Shown here in pieces: positions 1,053 through 6,937 of a DNA stretch of 6,937 nucleotides. Made by a program: the position numbers and the translations under genes. The notes beneath the pieces are model-generated. The model saw only the letters and a list, made by a program, of their open reading frames with translations. It had not been told where the DNA came from and did no database searches. Numbering within the stretch: the stretch's first letter is position 1; each line of letters begins with the position of its first letter. The stretch is from a virus. Taxonomy: Duplodnaviria > Heunggongvirae > Uroviricota > Caudoviricetes. The stretch lies in IMG/VR virus record IMGVR_UViG_2617270978_000007; one strand, given 5' to 3'.

Positions 1053-1273
1053 GCCACACCTCCCAGACGCTTAAACATTTTTCCGGAGCAAAAGGCTATA
1101 AGCGGCATACTGATGCGGTAATTACGGCCCAGCGGTTCACAAATCACCTTCTGACATTCACGGTCAACCAGGCTGACACGTAGAACATGCCCTGCAGGCG
1201 TGGTGTACCACTGACCAGGACGAGGACAACGGAAAGTCTGATTGGTAAACCGTTTGAAAATATTCCGGATCAT
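1049..1273 (-). CDS. Hypothetical small protein (74 aa), Cys-containing
   Basis: ORF-track ORF; ATG at 1273..1271 overlaps the Rha ORF stop (ATGA). A purine-rich SD-like stretch lies upstream. Function unknown. Confidence 0.5.
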   Translation of the reverse strand: MIRNIFKRFTNQTFRCPRPGQWYTTPAGHVLRVSLVDRECQKVICEPLGRNYRISMPLIAFCSGKMFKRLGGVA

Positions 1274-2418
1274 TTGCGCCCCCTTACCTCTGAAGGGTTC
1301 AGCGACAAATTTATGAGACTGGCCAGTAGCGCCGCGTCGTTGATGCGGTCATACAGACTTACAGCCAGCGGGGATTCGGCTTTTGCCAACATGGGATAAA
1401 GCTGCTGCAGCCAGACCTGATGAATTGATGAAATGTAGGAATAGAGAACGCTGGCGTTATGTGCAACGTCGCTCAGTACAGAGGGATTTGAAAGCTGTTT
1501 CTCCATCTGGTTAAAGGCATTGATGTATGCCTCTTTGAACTGGGCAGCACGTTTACCCGTGAAACCCATAGCAAGAAACGCAAAGCCGTCGCGGGTTATT
1601 TGATAGCAAGGTAGTTTGCGGCCTGTGCAATCGGTGTAATCACTCACCGAAAAATTGCGGGAAGTGAATGATGCAGAGCATTCAAGCGTGCGGATCTTTT
1701 TCAGTACATCGTCATGACGTTTGGAGAAGAAGTTGGCAACAGCCAGGGATGAAGTAACAGCCTGACCATCAACGATGGCAATTTCAGGTTGAGTGAGGGT
1801 TGGGATCGTAGCCATGATGGCAGCCTCCGTTGACTGTGGAAAACTTCCACCACCGGAGCTGCGAAACTCACTGGTGGCAGACTGAACAGGGTTCGCAGTA
1901 CCGGCGTCAACGGAGACCGGCGAGCCTTTCGGCTCCCCTGCCCAGCCCACCATAATTCTGGCGTGCGTGAGCGCGGACGATAAAAAAGACGCTGGCGCGT
2001 CATATATCGCCGTTGACAATTCCGGGCTGCGACCCCCGGCACCCGCTTTATAAGGTGCCTGAGCAGTGTAACGTCCCGGAATTGCAGAATCAATATGCTG
2101 GTGGTCCTTCACACTCAACAAAATCACGCCTGAATTTCCACAAAGGACTAAAGCACTCATGCGGGTAGTCTTTGCGAAGATAGATAACGCGCTGTGTTTC
2201 TGGCTCCCAACGAATAACATGGACATAAAGCCCTCTTCCGTCACGAAACCAGCGGTTAAGTTCCTGCACAACTCGCCCCCCACAGTCAGGTAAAGTTCTC
2301 TGTGGTTACTTACAGCCAGGTGATTTGGTAATCTGCATTCATGCCGTAACAACAGGTGTTCAGCGACGCTGACCACCAGCTGTTGCGACAAACGGTTATT
2401 TGCCGTTAAACTATTCAT
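1270..2418 (-). CDS. Rha-family phage regulatory protein (382-aa ORF; the Rha domain is the C-terminal 181 aa, with an alternative internal start at 1815)
   Basis: The C-terminal half (MATIPTLTQPEIAIVDGQAVTSSLAVANFFSKRHDDVLKKIRTLE...) carries the F-x-KRH-D-x-VL-x-x-IR signature of Phage_pRha proteins. An internal ATG at 1815..1813 is preceded by GGAGG at 1824..1828. The full ORF starts at an ATG at 2418..2416 that overlaps the upstream stop (ATGA), and its N-terminal ~200 aa are low-complexity (Ala/Gly/Ser-rich) with no recognised domain. Boundaries are uncertain between 1270..1815 and 1270..2418. Confidence 0.55.
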   Translation of the reverse strand: MNSLTANNRLSQQLVVSVAEHLLLRHECRLPNHLAVSNHRELYLTVGGELCRNLTAGFVTEEGFMSMLFVGSQKHSALSIFAKTTRMSALVLCGNSGVILLSVKDHQHIDSAIPGRYTAQAPYKAGAGGRSPELSTAIYDAPASFLSSALTHARIMVGWAGEPKGSPVSVDAGTANPVQSATSEFRSSGGGSFPQSTEAAIMATIPTLTQPEIAIVDGQAVTSSLAVANFFSKRHDDVLKKIRTLECSASFTSRNFSVSDYTDCTGRKLPCYQITRDGFAFLAMGFTGKRAAQFKEAYINAFNQMEKQLSNPSVLSDVAHNASVLYSYISSIHQVWLQQLYPMLAKAESPLAVSLYDRINDAALLASLINLSLNPSEVRGRK

Positions 2419-2972
2419 GCGTTAGTTTCTCCACAACCAGAAGCAATCGACGCCACGACGCCCGGAGCTGCACACTCGCGGGCGTTACTATTTTCTGGAG
2501 CGCAGAAGATTTTGTAGACCAGTGCTGCATGCTCCTGGAGCTTCGAAATTGAGAGGTACAGCTCGTCGTTAATTGCTGTCTTCTCATGCGGTTCCACTAC
2601 ACCGTCTTCGATTGCTGAACGAATCTGTCTGGAATAACTGCCGATCTGTTCAATGACTTCCAGCAGACGCTGGTTAATATCGGCGTTGTCCACATCCTCG
2701 ACGTCAGGAAGAGACACAAAGACGCCATTTGCAGACTGCGCCACAGCGTCAGCAATGAAGTGAGTTCCACCAGCACGTTGTAAAATCATTGCCCATCCCA
2801 GCGGGAAAATCTGATCGCCATCGGCACGAAGGCGATTGAATAAAGCGTTCTCTGTTACATCCAGCCAGTCAGCGGCTTCAGCGTAACCCCCCGGCAACGC
2901 CGCGATAGTTTTTCTGACAGCTTTCACGTACCACTCAGGCTGTTTTTCTATTTTCCAGTGATGCTTACCCAC
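2415..2972 (-). CDS. CII-like / YdaT-family early regulatory protein (putative)
   Basis: ORF in the position of cII, immediately downstream of cro. Preferred start is GTG at 2972..2970 with AAGGAG SD 6 nt upstream; the ORF-track ATG at 3077 would overlap cro and has no SD. Family assignment is from recalled resemblance and gene order only. Confidence 0.6.
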   Translation of the reverse strand: MGKHHWKIEKQPEWYVKAVRKTIAALPGGYAEAADWLDVTENALFNRLRADGDQIFPLGWAMILQRAGGTHFIADAVAQSANGVFVSLPDVEDVDNADINQRLLEVIEQIGSYSRQIRSAIEDGVVEPHEKTAINDELYLSISKLQEHAALVYKIFCAPENSNARECAAPGVVASIASGCGETNA

Positions 2973-2994
2973 GGCTATCTCCTTAAAACTGTGG

Positions 2995-3243
2995 TTACTT
3001 TTCATCTGATGAATCTTTAATCTTTTGAAAAATATCTGGACGTAATTTTTCTTTTGATATGCCAGTGGTCTTTTCAATGAATATCGAAAGCTTTGCAGGG
3101 GGACGCTTTTCTCTGTTCAACCAGTTCCAGACATGTTGTTGCTTTACTAAATGACCGCTGCTGGCTGTGAGCTTCCGAGCCAATTCTGATTGACCACCAG
3201 CCAGAGCGATTGCCTCCGATAAGGCTAATTGCTCAGGTGTCAT
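2995..3243 (-). CDS. Cro-like HTH transcriptional regulator (YdaS-like)
   Basis: 82-aa ORF divergent from the repressor. ATG at 3243..3241 with AAGGAG SD 6 nt upstream. N-terminal HTH-like segment (LSEAIALAGGQSELARKLTASSGHL). Size and position match Cro. Confidence 0.75.
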   Translation of the reverse strand: MTPEQLALSEAIALAGGQSELARKLTASSGHLVKQQHVWNWLNREKRPPAKLSIFIEKTTGISKEKLRPDIFQKIKDSSDEK

Positions 3244-3378
3244 AGCTTTCTCCTTTTTTGGTAGTTAAGTTGTTACGAGCTGCAAGAATACAACATTAAC
3301 AACTTTTACCACAACTTTTAGATGTTGGAAAGCTAAAACATAAAGTTGTAACCTCATCAAAAAAGAGAGGGATATGTT
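3244..3378. promoter_or_regulatory. OR-like divergent operator/promoter region between the cro-like and cI-like genes
   Basis: 135-bp AT-rich intergenic region between divergent repressor and cro starts. It contains repeated ACAACT/AGTTGT motifs in both orientations: AAGTTGTTA 3267..3275 with its reverse complement TAACAACTT 3297..3305, and ACAACTTTTA at 3299..3308 and 3311..3320 as a direct repeat. It shares the 12-mer ACATAAAGTTGT and 9-mer ACCACAACT with the region at 4991..5025. Exact -35/-10 elements were not resolved. Confidence 0.6.
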
Positions 3379-4065
3379 GTGAAAACACTGGCAGAACGAT
3401 TAAAGATAGGTAGAGAGAAAGCTGGCATGAGCCAAGCTCAACTAGCTGAAAAAATTGGACTTTCACAACAATCTGTAGCCAAAATAGAGAATGGCGAAAC
3501 TCTACAACCGCGCAAAATTAAAGAAATTGCAAAAGTTTTAGGTGTATCACAAAAGTGGTTACAACTTGGTATTGAAGACAACGCATCCATACCTGATCTT
3601 GTTGTAAAAGAAGCAGAAAGCACCGCATTAGACCCCGATATTTTCGTAAACATTCCTGTTTTAGATGTCGAGTTATCGGCAGGTAACGGATGTCTGGCTG
3701 AAATAGTTGAATCAGCTATTGACTGGTTTCCGTTAAGAAGAGCAGATTTGAGAAAATCTGGCGTATGTGCATCTAATGCCAAGATCGTACAAATATGGGG
3801 GAACAGTTTATTACCGGTTCTCAATAATGGAGATCTTGTTGCCGTTGATATTTCTCAAACCGTTCCTATTCGTGATGGCGATCTTTATGCCGTACGAGAT
3901 GGTGTATTGCTAAGGGTTAAAATACTTATCAACTTACCTGACGGTGGCTTGATTCTTAGAAGCTTCAACAAAGATGAGTACCCAGATGAAATACTCACCT
4001 TTGAAGATAGACGAGCCAGAATTCATGTTATAGGTAGGGTATTCTGGTCATCGCGAACTTGGTAA
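3379..4065 (+). CDS. CI-like prophage repressor (XRE-type HTH N-terminal domain + LexA/S24 peptidase-like autocleavage domain)
   Basis: 228-aa ORF, GTG start at 3379 with GAGGGA SD-like sequence 7 nt upstream. N-terminal HTH (MSQAQLAEKIGLSQQSVAKIENGE). An Ala-Gly candidate cleavage site (LSAGNG), a GNSLLP segment with the candidate catalytic Ser and a downstream Lys (LLRVKIL) match the Ser/Lys dyad arrangement of LexA and lambda CI. Confidence 0.9.
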   Translation: MKTLAERLKIGREKAGMSQAQLAEKIGLSQQSVAKIENGETLQPRKIKEIAKVLGVSQKWLQLGIEDNASIPDLVVKEAESTALDPDIFVNIPVLDVELSAGNGCLAEIVESAIDWFPLRRADLRKSGVCASNAKIVQIWGNSLLPVLNNGDLVAVDISQTVPIRDGDLYAVRDGVLLRVKILINLPDGGLILRSFNKDEYPDEILTFEDRRARIHVIGRVFWSSRTW

Positions 4066-4938
4066 TGCATCGAAAAGCATTTCTTCAGAAATAATTTTAA
4101 GTTTTGCACCATTATCATCCCTATAAGATATAGCCTTTTCGATCTTCCTTCCGTGACTAGAGAATTTCCAATCACGGGAGGAAAGCGTCCCAATTACTAA
4201 AAAATCCAACTTTTGAGTAATTCCACTACTGATGTTCCCACCAGCATTTTTAATCAAATTTTCAACTACGGCTCTCTTTCCTGCAACAAAAGTGCCTGTA
4301 AGACAATAGGTTTTACCCTCTAACTCTATCGAAGCCCCTACATCAATAGGCAGCCTGGTCGCCAAACCATCCACCACCCCACTTTCCAAGTCACATCCTG
4401 TGAAGTCTACTAATGCCTTATGTAGAGTTAAACTCTCATCTTCAGTAATAACACCATCTTTAAGAATTTCCTTTACAAGTGCATAAAGTTTTTTTCCTGG
4501 GTAGTTGTTCTTCAAAGCTCCATTTTGCTCAAGCCACCAATTAAGATATCTTATTTCTTCTTGAGTTAAGTTCCGATCAGCAATTAATCCTTTACATAGT
4601 CCATTAAGTAAATGGACATCTACATCCTTGGAGTAAAAATCAATTTCAGGGATATCAAGAATTTCCCTCTGTATTTGGAGAAGGCTATTTTTAAGGTCAT
4701 CACGTTCTTCTGATGTGATTATTCCATCCGCAAGAATATCCGACACCCGAGCAGATAGACTTTTTATAACTCCATTATTGATAATCTGCTTTGCTTCAAG
4801 TAACCATGTATCTAAGTAAAGAACCTCCTCTTCACGGACAACTCCATCTGCAATGATTCCATCAATGATGCTAATCAAGTTAGCAAATAACTTGTCCCGG
4901 TTCTGTGTGTAATTAAAAGCGTAAAGCGCGTCTTCCAT
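4048..4938 (-). CDS. TerB-like repeat protein with C-terminal BRCT domain (296 aa); accessory (moron) gene
   Basis: ATG at 4938..4936 with GGAGG at 4943..4947 (MEDALYAFNYTQNRD...); the ORF-track start at 4968 lacks an SD. Four ~35-aa repeats carry the motif (I/L)ADG-x-(I/V)-x-x-EE (IADGVVREEE, LADGIITSEE, IADRNLTQEE, LKDGVITEDE), resembling TerB-type domains. The C-terminal ~85 aa (GKTYCLTGTFVAGKRAVVENLIKNAGGNISSGITQKLDFLVIGTLSS...AKLKIISEEMLFDAL) match the BRCT pattern of NAD-ligase C-termini. The stop at 4048..4050 overlaps the repressor 3' end by 18 bp. Confidence 0.8.
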   Translation of the reverse strand: MEDALYAFNYTQNRDKLFANLISIIDGIIADGVVREEEVLYLDTWLLEAKQIINNGVIKSLSARVSDILADGIITSEERDDLKNSLLQIQREILDIPEIDFYSKDVDVHLLNGLCKGLIADRNLTQEEIRYLNWWLEQNGALKNNYPGKKLYALVKEILKDGVITEDESLTLHKALVDFTGCDLESGVVDGLATRLPIDVGASIELEGKTYCLTGTFVAGKRAVVENLIKNAGGNISSGITQKLDFLVIGTLSSRDWKFSSHGRKIEKAISYRDDNGAKLKIISEEMLFDALPSSR

Positions 4939-4990
4939 ACAACCTCCTTTTTTTGATAATCCTTGCACTCCTTGGCTACTCGTTCAAACC

Positions 4991-5037
4991 ACATAAAGTT
5001 GTTGGCAACATTCAAAACCACAACTAAATTACAACTT
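4991..5037 (+). promoter_or_regulatory. OL-like operator region with predicted rightward early promoter (-35 TTGGCA 5002..5007, 17-bp spacer, -10 TAAATT 5025..5030)
   Basis: Shares ACATAAAGTTGT (4991..5002, identical to 3338..3349) and ACCACAACT (5017..5025, identical to 3308..3316) with the OR region, plus ACAACTT at 5031..5037. A perfect palindrome TGTTG-G-CAACA at 5000..5010 overlaps the candidate -35. The promoter is by eye only. Confidence 0.45.
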
Positions 5038-5121
5038 AAAGGTGTTAAGACAACGAACAGGCAGGACACCCACGAAGTAGCCGCCTGGGGCATATGAAGT
5101 CCAGGATGATTCGTTAGCAAC

Positions 5122-5146: not shown

Positions 5147-5159
5147 GCTCTTTAACAAT
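5147..5159 (+). promoter_or_regulatory. boxA-like element (GCTCTTTAACAAT), candidate antitermination (nut-like) site about 120 nt downstream of the predicted early-left promoter
   Basis: GCTCTTTAACAAT at 5147..5159 matches the rrn-type boxA as recalled (GCTCTTTAACAA) and the lambda nut boxA core (CGCTCTT-A). It follows the 5126..5145 hairpin, giving a hairpin-then-boxA order like rrn leaders. Confidence 0.4.
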
Positions 5160-5381
5160 CTGGTCCCCATCAACAAGTAACTGATAACTTGAGGAGGTGT
5201 GAAATGCACAAAACAGAACCCAAAATCGTCGCGCCTAGCTACACAGATGAGTAAATTTATGAGTGGATGACAAAGAAGCTGGCAGCTATAAACCAGCTTC
5301 GTGAAGTGCTGTCTTATCGACAGGAAACAATAGACTCCTTAAAAAAACTGGATCAGGAAATCACGGTTTTATCACAGGATG

Positions 5382-5816
5382 TTACTTTAGATATTGTGCA
5401 GACAAATTAGGATCCCATTCATTTTCGTCAAAATCATCAAAGTGATGAATTTGTGATCTCCAGTCTCGATAATCTAAAAATTTCTGGGCGGTTACGCTTA
5501 TTTTATCAAGTGTGAGTTCATCCTGAATTGAAAGAAGAAGTTCATCAAATTTCATCTCATTAATCTGTTTTGGCATCCAGTGATGCTTCATCAGAATAAG
5601 GTGAACCAGAGCCTTTTTCCCATTCAACTGATTATAGGGAGTGCCGAATTTCTTCCGGTGCTCATGTAAGACAAGATCCAGAAGAGTAAGTAATGTTGCC
5701 CTTGATTCCACTTTGCTTATTTCGACTGATGACACTATCCCACTGATTTCAATGCCCCGATACTTTCCAACATTTTCACAGTGGGATTTGTACAACGTGT
5801 AGATATTACCGGACAT
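5382..5816 (-). CDS. Hypothetical protein (144 aa), orphan accessory gene antisense to the early-left direction
   Basis: ORF-track ORF; ATG at 5816..5814 preceded by AAGGAAA SD-like sequence. Acidic C-terminus (HHFDDFDENEWDPN), no obvious TM segment, no recognised domain. Flanked by direct repeats upstream (5832..5883) and a - strand terminator downstream (5122..5145). Confidence 0.62.
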   Translation of the reverse strand: MSGNIYTLYKSHCENVGKYRGIEISGIVSSVEISKVESRATLLTLLDLVLHEHRKKFGTPYNQLNGKKALVHLILMKHHWMPKQINEMKFDELLLSIQDELTLDKISVTAQKFLDYRDWRSQIHHFDDFDENEWDPNLSAQYLK

Positions 5817-5883: not shown

Positions 5884-6104
5884 GTCCACCTCGCCTGATG
5901 TGGCTAAAAGCAGGCACATAACAGCTAAGTATTTTCAACCAGAGAGAATCCTTAGAGTTGTGGTGAATGCGCAGGCTGATGCGCGAAAGACATTGCAGCT
6001 ATTGCGGAAAAGAGCTGTTCGGCGGGGCAATTAAACGCCCGTGAGAGTCTGAAATAACCGCAAGCCGGAGATCAGCACCGGTCACCACAACAGCCACTGC
6101 TTTG

Positions 6105-6150
6105 GCGGTACCAGTTTGTACACTTGCTTCCGGCTGGTACCGCTCTTTTT
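6105..6150 (+). terminator. Hairpin with perfect 10-bp stem (GCGGTACCAG / CTGGTACCGC) followed by TCTTTTT; candidate intrinsic terminator or antitermination element overlapping a boxA-like CGCTCTTTTTACAAAAC
   Basis: Stem arms at 6105..6114 and 6134..6143, 19-nt loop, T-run at 6144..6150. The sequence CGCTCTTTTTACAAAAC at 6141..6157 resembles boxA. Located about 140 nt upstream of the 6288 gene start. Confidence 0.45.
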
Positions 6151-6239
6151 ACAAAACAGAGAAGAGCATCACCGGACGACGGGCTCATAACCCAATCCAT
6201 CCGGGCGGCTGCCACCGCAGGTGTTCTTCTCTGTTTTGT
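6151..6239 (+). repeat. 15-bp perfect inverted repeat (ACAAAACAGAGAAGA at 6151..6165; TCTTCTCTGTTTTGT at 6225..6239) flanking a 59-bp GC-rich spacer, in the leader of the downstream gene
   Basis: Directly visible. Arms are exact reverse complements and would form a long-range RNA stem or a symmetric protein-binding site. It ends about 50 nt upstream of the ATG at 6288. Confidence 0.55.
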
Positions 6240-6287
6240 GGAGAAACCAACCGACCTTGCAGGGTCGATATGATGAGGAGCAGCAAA

Positions 6288-6650
6288 ATGGCTAGCGTAC
6301 GCAGTACTGATGTGCAGGTATTTATCGTAGAACTGGACGGCGGCGTATTTGAAACCAAACTCGGCGCAGTTCTCAGTGAAGTCGCTTCCGGTGTGATGAA
6401 CACGAAAAACAAAGGTAAAGTCTCGGTCAATCTGGACATCGAACCGTTTGATGAGAACCGTGTGAAAATCAAACACAAACTCTCATATGTTCGCCCGACT
6501 AACCGCGGGAAAATTTCCGAAGAAGACACCACCGAAACGCCGATGTATGTCAATCGAGGTGGTCGCCTGACTATTCTGCAGGAAGACCAGGGACAATTAC
6601 TGACTCTTGCCGGTGAACCTGACGGAAAACTCCGCGCAGCAGGTCATTAA
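6288..6650 (+). CDS. Hypothetical early-left prophage protein (120 aa)
   Basis: ATG at 6288 with GAGGAG SD at 6275..6280 (7-nt spacer); MASVRSTDVQVFIVELDGGVFETKLGAVL.... The ORF-track start at 6102 would place the hairpin and inverted repeat inside the coding region and has no SD. Resembles, from memory only, small conserved early proteins of CPS-53-like prophages. Confidence 0.7.
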   Translation: MASVRSTDVQVFIVELDGGVFETKLGAVLSEVASGVMNTKNKGKVSVNLDIEPFDENRVKIKHKLSYVRPTNRGKISEEDTTETPMYVNRGGRLTILQEDQGQLLTLAGEPDGKLRAAGH

Positions 6651-6715: not shown

Positions 6716-6937
6716 ATGTCTCAGAACTTAGACGCAACCGCAATTAATCAAATCCATGCCCTTATTTCTGCTCAGGGTGTTAATGAAATTATCAGTAAGA
6801 TTGGTGCCGATGCTGTGGCATTGCCTGAGAATTTCCGCATTCATGATCTGGAAAAATTTAATTTAAATCGCTTCCGTTTCCGTGGTGCGCTTTCCACTGC
6901 CAGCATCGATGACTTTACCCGTTATTCTAAAGATCTT
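6716..6937 (+). CDS. Hypothetical prophage protein, 5' 74 codons only; continues beyond the window end
   Basis: ATG at 6716 with GAGGA SD at 6705..6709 (6-nt spacer); open in frame to the last base of the window ([74 protein letters not shown]). Not in the ORF track because it has no stop. Confidence 0.65.

Follow-up and report, generated by a model that had tools for sequence, protein, structure and literature searches.

The question raised by this locus is what a perfect inverted repeat of 15 bp is doing in the leader of an early gene of a lambdoid phage. The window, the whole stretch of 6,937 nucleotides that was analysed (IMG/VR record IMGVR_UViG_2617270978_000007), comes from a lambdoid prophage and is its immunity region. 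A cI-like repressor of the S24/HTH type is encoded on the plus strand (3379-4065), and a cro-like gene (2995-3243), a CII/CP76-like gene (2415-3077) and an ORF of the Rha/Ash type (1270-2418) lie on the minus strand. The last of these overlaps a C4 RNA (RF01695; 1870-1957, minus strand), matched by the Rfam model at 78.8 bits, and an isrK RNA (RF01394), matched at 58.7 bits. The first early-left gene is yfdP (6288-6650, plus strand), recognized as YfdP in RefSeq and phage records, and yfdQ starts downstream of it at 6718 on the same strand. A promoter scan found a PL-like promoter, TTGGCA-17-TAAATT, at 5002-5030 of the plus strand within operator-like repeats (4995-5045); the ACAACTT/AAGTTGT repeats around it recur in the cI/cro intergenic region (3262-3345). 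The promoter at 4995-5045 is probably the start of the early-left transcript that carries the inverted repeat. It is not adjacent to the repeat, and the PL transcript must run antisense through an ORF at 5382-5816 (minus strand) before it reaches the yfdP leader. With the repressor, the promoter and its operators, and yfdP/yfdQ downstream, the placement of the repeat in an early-left leader, first proposed by a sequence-only reading of this DNA, proved right.

A second feature of this transcript lies close to the promoter. The PL-proximal leader block at 5056-5115 (plus strand), conserved after PL in SfV and ST64B, matched the block behind PL of these two phages at 29 of 30 positions, and it aligned with HK022 putL and putR at the invariant CGAAC...GGATGA positions. 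Phages of the SfV/ST64B/mEp460 type have no N homologue (PMC12315714). Given the lack of N and the put-like similarity, the block is a candidate put-like antiterminator RNA, which, if it works as one, would carry RNA polymerase past the terminator that precedes the repeat.

The two arms of the repeat, ACAAAACAGAGAAGA at 6151-6165 and TCTTCTCTGTTTTGT at 6225-6239, are exact reverse complements of each other, as had been described, and form the longest perfect inverted repeat in the window (loop up to 100 nt). The expectation that such a repeat would hardly arise by chance was confirmed, as the longest repeat in 60 dinucleotide-preserving shuffles was 12 bp, and the number of 15-bp repeats expected analytically per window is about 6e-4. 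The 59-nt core between the arms (6166-6224) was also found to be GC-rich as reported (66% G+C by hand count), and the 3' arm stops 48 nt before the yfdP ATG at 6288, close to the distance given earlier. As RNA, the plus strand of 6140-6250 folds at -51.2 kcal/mol (z = -6.8), with none of 200 shuffles equally stable, whereas the minus strand folds less well (z = -4.8).

In the folded RNA the repeat is part of a longer closing helix, P1, with its 5' arm at 6151-6170 and its 3' arm at 6220-6239 of the plus strand, both assigned from the fold and from covariation. Inward extension of the repeat gives 20 bp with two G·U pairs (G6166·U6224 and U6169·G6221). Outward, the U-tract 6144-6150 pairs with GGAGAAA at 6240-6246, and the helix reaches 25-27 bp with one mismatch. 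P1 closes two hairpins, P2 and P3, in a three-way junction with two linkers, A6171 between P1 and P2 and A6219 after P3. The P2 hairpin (6172-6204, plus strand), supported by the fold, covariation and conservation of its CAU, has a loop of 19 nt on a 7-bp stem (6172-6178/6198-6204) that contains one C·A mismatch. P3 (6205-6218, plus strand), assigned from the fold and by comparison with relatives, is small and variable, GCGG-CUGCCA-CCGC in the window; among relatives its length varies between 10 and about 50 nt, and a hairpin is always formed. The earlier description of the core as a structured GC-rich loop was therefore correct as to structure, and what it missed was a conserved three-way junction with a mimic of the initiator-tRNA anticodon arm.

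The region is common to mEp460, cdtI, SfV, SfII, SfIV, Stx2a and Stx2c phages, ST64B, phiNP, LLS and Klebsiella phages, and loci found via YfdP in the genome collection added about 10 further genera. For the analysis of covariation, 31 homologues in the early-left context of the window were aligned, from E. coli, Shigella, Salmonella, Enterobacter, Leclercia, Kosakonia, Phytobacter, Mangrovibacter, Atlantibacter, Superficieibacter, Scandinavium and Pseudocitrobacter. Over P1 and P2, 93.5% of the cells of this alignment were paired, where shuffles gave 89.5 ± 0.4% and slid registers 35-53%, and none of 500 shuffles matched the real pairing. Compensatory change was found at 6 of 19 stem pairs, so that the arms covary in homologous prophages, the check that the sequence-only reading had asked for, and double changes occurred at nine pairs; G-C was replaced by C-G at columns 41/141 in 10 sequences, and A-U by G-C at 44/138. 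A second alignment, of the core in 27 sequences from all three genomic contexts described below, showed compensatory pairs at 6 of 7 positions in P1 and 4 of 7 in P2, with a covariation score of 0.459 against 0.189 in shuffles, a value that none of 500 shuffles reached. Wobble pairs were conserved too, U·G in 22 and G·U in 11 of the 31 homologues, which on the opposite strand become A·C mismatches. Since the wobble pairs are conserved on one strand, the fold is that of plus-strand RNA and not a DNA palindrome. In most other genera P1 is interrupted at its centre by one mismatch, C·U or C·C; the E. coli lineage of the window, whose P1 is without it, is atypical. Separately, recombination was seen at the borders of the element, with chimeric arms in one locus (L210) and a natural deletion in another (L009).

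The most conserved part of the element is the P2 loop and not the stem; the loop is nearly invariant, and P3 and the flanks vary freely. Comparison with tRNA was made because the Klebsiella phage matches adjoined annotated tRNAs. Inside the 19-nt loop, ACGGGCUCAUAACCCAAUC, GGG can pair with CCC to leave a 7-nt loop CUCAUAA, giving GGG-CUCAUAA-CCC at 6181-6193 with CAU at 6186-6188. Bases 6180-6193 (CGGGCUCAUAACCC) are identical at 14 of 14 positions to the anticodon stem-loop of E. coli initiator tRNA-fMet, in the same stem and loop register, and the identity is limited to these 14 nt. The reference tRNA sequence was confirmed in all 5426 E. coli genomes, and the chance of such a 14/14 match to any E. 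coli tRNA was estimated at about 1e-4. The arm thus carries what distinguishes an initiator anticodon, namely a 7-nt loop with U33, three consecutive G-C pairs and CAU. An exact-pattern scan of IMG/VR found CAU in at least 120 viral contigs, while searching the same frame for other triplets revealed single changes at position 34 or 35 in only 8 family members and none at position 36. Positions 37-38 of the loop are altered in some lineages (CUCAUUC in L007, L011 and L018, CUCAUUA in ST64B), and one lineage, L030, is without CAU altogether.

Immediately upstream of P1 lies an intrinsic terminator, recognized from the sequence at 6104-6150 of the plus strand, with a stem of GGCGGTACCAG and CTGGTACCGC(T) and the U-tract TCTTTTT at 6144-6150. 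As RNA it reads GGCGGUACCAG...CUGGUACCGC(U), then UCUUUUU, and it directly abuts the 5' arm of P1. Among distinct homologous upstream contexts, 61 of 67 had a GC-rich hairpin and T4-T8 ending exactly at P1, with terminator stem sequences that differ among lineages. Given this adjacency in the face of differing stems, the terminator was taken to be part of the module. The repeat itself was also considered as an intrinsic terminator and rejected, as the base of its stem is A/U-rich and followed by GGAGAAAC, and the terminator scan made no call there.

On the 3' side, a conserved motif GUGGAGAAAC(C/U)AAC at 6238-6251 of the plus strand (GUGGAGAAACCAAC in the window) was recognized by comparison. 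Its GGAGAAA is the sequence that pairs with the terminator U-tract to extend P1, and the motif marks the boundary where downstream genes get exchanged. As a side observation, a near-identical 16-mer (15/16) stands ahead of the ATG of the ORF at 1270-2418 (minus strand). Between the element and the ribosome-binding site (RBS) comes a small hairpin, CGACC-UUGCAG-GGUCG (6252-6267, plus strand), which is swapped for other hairpins in relatives, followed by the Shine-Dalgarno sequence GAGGAG (6275-6280, plus strand) that precedes the yfdP ATG. The leader is fully structured from terminator to RBS, with an SD-like GGAG sequestered in the P1 extension. The CAU loop can pair with only 5 nt of the yfdP start region, and this pairing is not conserved in other genera. 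The proposal of an RNA structure in the early-left leader was thus borne out, although the terminator abutting the stem had been overlooked, as had the fact that the structure has no tie to yfdP.

This last point became clear from the distribution of the family, which occurs in three contexts. In type A, the form of the window, a terminator is followed by a P1 of 13-27 bp in an early-left leader, before yfdP, rdgC or other genes. In type B, found in Klebsiella lambdoid phages, the element lies downstream of Q, separated by a few bases from a preceding tRNA-Asn, tRNA-Arg or tRNA-Met, and all 11 distinct sequences have the closing stem GGCCUG/CAGGCC followed by RCCA. In type C it begins 8 nt past a tR'-like terminator or an isrJ-like region, between Q (PF03589) and holin, with the closing stem GGGCUC/GAGCCC followed by GCCA; the full RCCA is present at the 3' end in two of four and GCCU in one more, and the first tRNA of phage GZ7 is spaced alike (UUUUUCAUAUUCA|GGG). 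The closing stems of the short-stem relatives were assigned by explicit parsing, and in the late-operon relatives they measure 6-7 bp before RCCA. One contig (L218) carries two copies, type A in the early-left leader and type C in the late operon. In Phytobacter prophages a tRNA gene lies just upstream of the terminator and a type A element. The genes downstream of the element vary (yfdP, rdgC, holin and others), and yfdP homologues without the element occur in three loci (L005, L009 and L017). Because the downstream genes vary and one phage has both an early and a late copy, the module appears to be portable and not a gene-specific regulator.

The late relatives thus resemble tRNA genes in their slot, their acceptor-like stem and their RCCA. 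Lambdoid late operons with tRNA genes at their 5' end are documented (PMC8022706). The slots of the relatives are shared with phage tRNAs of the PR' moron/tRNA position, such as those of phage L, Sf6 and 933W (ileZ-argN-argO). The likeness extends to the acceptor-like stem and RCCA of the relatives and to an anticodon-like 7-nt loop with U33-CAU. Unlike those tRNAs, members of the family have neither D arm nor T-loop and go undetected by tRNA finders, and the window copy differs further in lying in an early-left leader with a closing helix of 20-27 bp. A canonical tRNA was accordingly rejected for the window; ARAGORN called 0 genes there, its relaxed and mitochondrial modes gave only noise, and the Rfam tRNA model RF00005 had no match in the window at E up to 10. 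The version in the window is without CCA, D arm and T-loop, and where a tRNA would have an acceptor stem and CCA, it has the P1 of 20-27 bp followed by GGAGAAAC.

A covariance model (R1) found one copy per early-left locus and no copy in phi80 or HK022. Of 5426 complete E. coli genomes, 2488 (about 46%) carry the hairpin at an identity of at least 95%, in up to 5 copies, and the E. coli copies in the genome records examined are annotated as nothing or as 'hypothetical protein'. Carriers include O157:H7, Stx2 phages, Shigella serotype-converting phages, Salmonella ST64B and Klebsiella phages. Rfam 15 has no family at the element, either in the window (E up to 10) or in the relatives (E up to 1), and no description of the element was found in the literature on yfdP, ST64B sRNAs, lambdoid tRNA-like elements or initiator-tRNA mimics. 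Two known RNAs were considered and set aside. The M3 RNA of phi80, a historic RNase P substrate, is an annotated oop homologue, and phi80, which has N and nutL, is without the element; the AgvB/AsxR anti-sRNAs of EHEC prophages lie at another locus, the PR' moron site. The element is one member of a widespread family of lambdoid phage modules that resemble tRNAs and are apparently undescribed.

The reading that we favor, at a probability of about 0.5, is that the inverted repeat is the P1 helix of a conserved plus-strand tRNA-like leader RNA which is made on terminator read-through, excised, and released with its CAU loop. Because the element begins at the last U of the terminator, the RNA would be made only when polymerase reads through. 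Read-through would occur during lytic development, probably after modification of the polymerase by the put-like RNA near PL. The module would then be cut from the leader and accumulate as a small stable tRNA-like RNA. For the long-stem version, excision by RNase III acting on P1 is likely; RNase III sites are helices of at least 20 bp that are mostly Watson-Crick, and P1, at 20 bp (two of them G·U) and 25-27 bp with its extension, is of this kind, so that processing of this long, near-perfect double-stranded stem is plausible. For the versions ending in RCCA, RNase P and the tRNA 3'-end processing enzymes are the likely agents. Excision would create a new 5' end for the downstream early mRNA and free the sequestered GGAG, and the released RNA would display its anticodon-like CAU loop to a factor that ordinarily recognizes initiator tRNA.

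Candidates for this partner are speculative and include the 30S P site with IF3, MetRS, and an anticodon nuclease such as VapC. VapC cleaves tRNA-fMet in enteric hosts. The more specific proposal, in which the element is a minimal D-arm-less mimic of initiator tRNA, released from early and late operon leaders only in the lytic cycle and serving either as a decoy that protects host tRNA-fMet against anticodon nucleases such as VapC/MvpT or, by binding the 30S P site, IF3 or MetRS, as a factor that retunes translation initiation in the infected cell, is tentative and rather unlikely to hold as it stands. A decoy role would require a high copy number, and a literature search for a VapC decoy of this kind found none. 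A leader hairpin which reproduces the anticodon stem-loop of a specific tRNA is also found in the E. coli thrS operator. However, thrS autoregulation works through an operator that overlaps its own RBS and to which the cognate synthetase binds, whereas the mimic studied here is about 100 nt from the start codon, and, unlike in thrS, the genes downstream of it are unrelated to methionine or initiation.

The main rival to excision and release of a tRNA-like RNA is that the element works only in cis, as a leader hairpin in which cleavage of P1 by RNase III, or its unfolding, sets the stability and translation of the first early-left gene, the likeness to tRNA-fMet being incidental or merely structural. 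This is possible, though on the unlikely side. A near-perfect helix of 20-27 bp stands 48 nt ahead of the ATG, its extension sequesters the SD-like GGAG, and the whole leader between terminator and RBS is structured, all of which would suit such a role. The lambda N leader bears an RNase III hairpin, and this hairpin of the PL-N leader and the R sites of the T7 early region are, like the element, long and mostly Watson-Crick leader hairpins; the lambda hairpin also shares with it the position between an antitermination signal and the RBS of the first gene in an early operon. The extra conservation of the 5' arm of P1, whose sequence is conserved beyond what pairing alone needs, could likewise reflect a cis function of the element. 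However, unlike the lambda and T7 hairpins, the stem of the element closes a three-way junction and is abutted by a terminator, and cleavage is here a prediction. The short-stem relatives, again in contrast to the lambda and T7 hairpins, cannot be RNase III substrates; the same core recurs in the tRNA slots of late operons with a stem of 6-7 bp, too short for RNase III, and RCCA. A purely local function also sits poorly with conservation that peaks in the P2 loop rather than in the stem, with downstream genes that vary and a yfdP that also occurs without the element, and with a 14/14 in-register match to tRNA-fMet for which the expectation is about 1e-4.

An antisense RNA of the C4/CI type, processed from the leader, is a less probable explanation, and we consider it improbable. 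The C4 RNAs of P1 and P7 and the CI RNA of P4 are long-stem, two-hairpin, CCA-bearing RNAs cut from operon leaders by RNase P. Here the conserved loop, whose complement GGAUUGGGUUAUGAGCC contains AUG, would repress a phage or host mRNA at its ribosome-binding region. The fold of the element does have a C4-like architecture, with a long terminal stem and two hairpins, and like the C4/CI RNAs (RF01695, CL00128) it is a small phage RNA in an operon leader whose terminal stem closes two hairpins, one of them with a large conserved loop. The 3' CCA of the C4/CI RNAs has its counterpart in the RCCA of the late relatives, which fits RNase P processing, and a genuine C4 RNA is present elsewhere in the window. 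Against this, the hairpin order of the element is reversed, and the Rfam models of the C4 clan (CL00128) had no match at 6140-6250 even at E up to 10. Where the C4/CI RNAs have an antisense box, the conserved loop of the element copies a tRNA anticodon arm, and the window's element differs from them in its much longer stem and in being without CCA. Complementary targets were not found in mEp460 or the window. A duplex scan with the P2 loop over both strands of the whole mEp460 genome gave a best non-self value of -24 kcal/mol, within the range of shuffled loops (-23 to -28 kcal/mol), and a pattern search for a loop-complementary site in the window returned only the element's own complement.

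That the element is a decaying tRNA pseudogene or a recombination scar without present function, with the long repeat as a by-product of module exchange, is hard to credit. The element does sit in slots of phage tRNA genes, and the chimeric arms and the natural deletion mentioned above point to recombination at its borders. A relic, however, would not be expected to have compensatory changes in both stems across many genera, a nearly invariant loop beside a variable P3 and variable flanks, or copies at least 95% identical in 46% of E. coli genomes.

Antitermination, one of the roles suggested when the repeat was first noticed, found no support. As a put- or nut-like element, the RNA would act on RNA polymerase, and in favor of this are the missing N homologue of these phages (PMC12315714) and the occurrence of the element in antitermination-dependent operons; it shares with the HK022 put RNAs that it is structured and located in the early leaders of lambdoid phages without N. 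But the put RNAs, each of two stem-loops, lie between the early promoter and the first terminators, whereas the element lies directly downstream of the terminator that it should suppress. The late-operon copies likewise follow Q-dependent terminators. Comparison of the element with HK022 putL and putR showed no similarity of sequence or structure, and the put-like block near PL is a far better candidate, so that this role is very improbable. The last alternative, a symmetric DNA site (the binding site of a dimeric regulator put forward earlier, or a cruciform or MITE terminal repeats), has only the perfect 15-bp palindromic pair to recommend it and can practically be dismissed, as the arms are 59 bp apart, only one strand tolerates the wobble pairs, each phage has a single copy, target-site duplications are absent, and the repressor operators at PL and PR have a different motif (ACAACTT) at other positions.

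The family combines strong covariation, an in-register copy of the initiator-tRNA anticodon arm, and a position right after antitermination-controlled terminators, and it is widespread in E. coli (about 46% of complete genomes) yet absent from Rfam 15. If the element is a processed trans-acting RNA, as the favored reading has it, it would represent a new class of phage tRNA mimic and would bear on the conflict between phage and host over tRNAs and on translation initiation. If its action is confined to cis, the missing leader architecture of the large N-less SfV/ST64B/mEp460 group of lambdoid phages would still be defined, in the order PL, put-like RNA, terminator, processing hairpin and first gene. 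As a minor observation, the 5' arm of many homologues contains CACAACA, the consensus of GcvB targets, which is buried in P1.

Two natural variants bear on the exchange of the element, the three-way-junction RNA on the + strand of the early-left leader. In a Buttiauxella locus (L009, 1400-1500), exactly the terminator and the hairpin are missing, with GUGGAGAACUAAC and yfdP kept. The stem P1 of another homologous locus, L210, was found to be chimeric, its 5' arm being of the E. coli type and its 3' arm of a different lineage, with pairing retained. These variants indicate recombination both at the borders of the element and inside it. In most homologues from outside E. coli (e.g. loci L013, L015 and L026), the 5' arm is ACACAACACACAAG, which includes CACAACA, the consensus of GcvB targets, and the 3' arm is similar to the G/U-rich seed of GcvB; both sequences are buried in P1.

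Further upstream, the leader segment 5951-6092 (+) forms a mosaic module of its own, and part of it (5969-5984) is the hairpin GCGCAGGCTGATGCGC. The segment is also present in mEp460 and is found alone on some E. coli plasmids, and the adjoining piece 5886-5971 matches the ymfH region of e14.

The probable early-left promoter, TTGGCA-17-TAAATT (5002-5030), is flanked by ACAACTT/AAGTTGT repeats (4995-5045), and the same repeats fill the cI/cro intergenic region (3262-3345); the two repeat regions are likely the OL/PL and OR operators. Directly 3' of PL lies a block (5056-5115, +) conserved in the window prophage, SfV and ST64B, which is a candidate for a put-like antiterminator RNA of N-less phages because it has the invariant CGAAC...GGATGA positions in common with putL and putR of HK022. 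Just 3' of the hairpin that follows this block is GCTCTTTAACAA (5149-5160, +), which matches the core of rrn-type boxA (UGCUCUUUAACAA) exactly.

PL is flanked by two ORFs on the other strand. One, 4048-4968(-), lies between cI and PL and encodes a C-terminal BRCT domain; the other, 5382-5816(-), encodes 144 amino acids and gave no match in Pfam. Since the latter sits between PL and the yfdP leader, the PL transcript must cross it in antisense. Terminator-like hairpins of the - strand at 5300-5275 and 5145-5126 flank these ORFs.

The 16-mer TTGTGGAGAAAC(T/C)AAC found 3' of the hairpin (6236-6251, +) is repeated with 15/16 identity at 2436-2421 (-), directly 5' of the ATG of the long ORF 1270-2418(-), and may be a common ribosome-binding site or a module-junction sequence. 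This ORF, whose product has Ash and Rha domains, encloses both a C4 antisense RNA (1870-1957, -; RF01695, 78.8 bits, which exceeds the gathering threshold) and isrK (1982-2058, -; RF01394, 58.7 bits). The arrangement resembles an immI antirepressor control module of the phage P1 type within a lambdoid prophage, and the 382-amino-acid call is probably too long, running over the RNA genes.

On the strand complementary to the element, the annotations of mEp460 (gp36; L239, 30855-30998) and of many E. coli genomes in RefSeq place short 'hypothetical protein' ORFs, which are probably false gene calls caused by a structured RNA gene being read as coding. In the early-left leader of two Phytobacter loci (L018 and L021), ARAGORN called a tRNA with the anticodon AAT (1222-1300) just upstream of the terminator and the element; thus, PL leaders also house tRNA genes.
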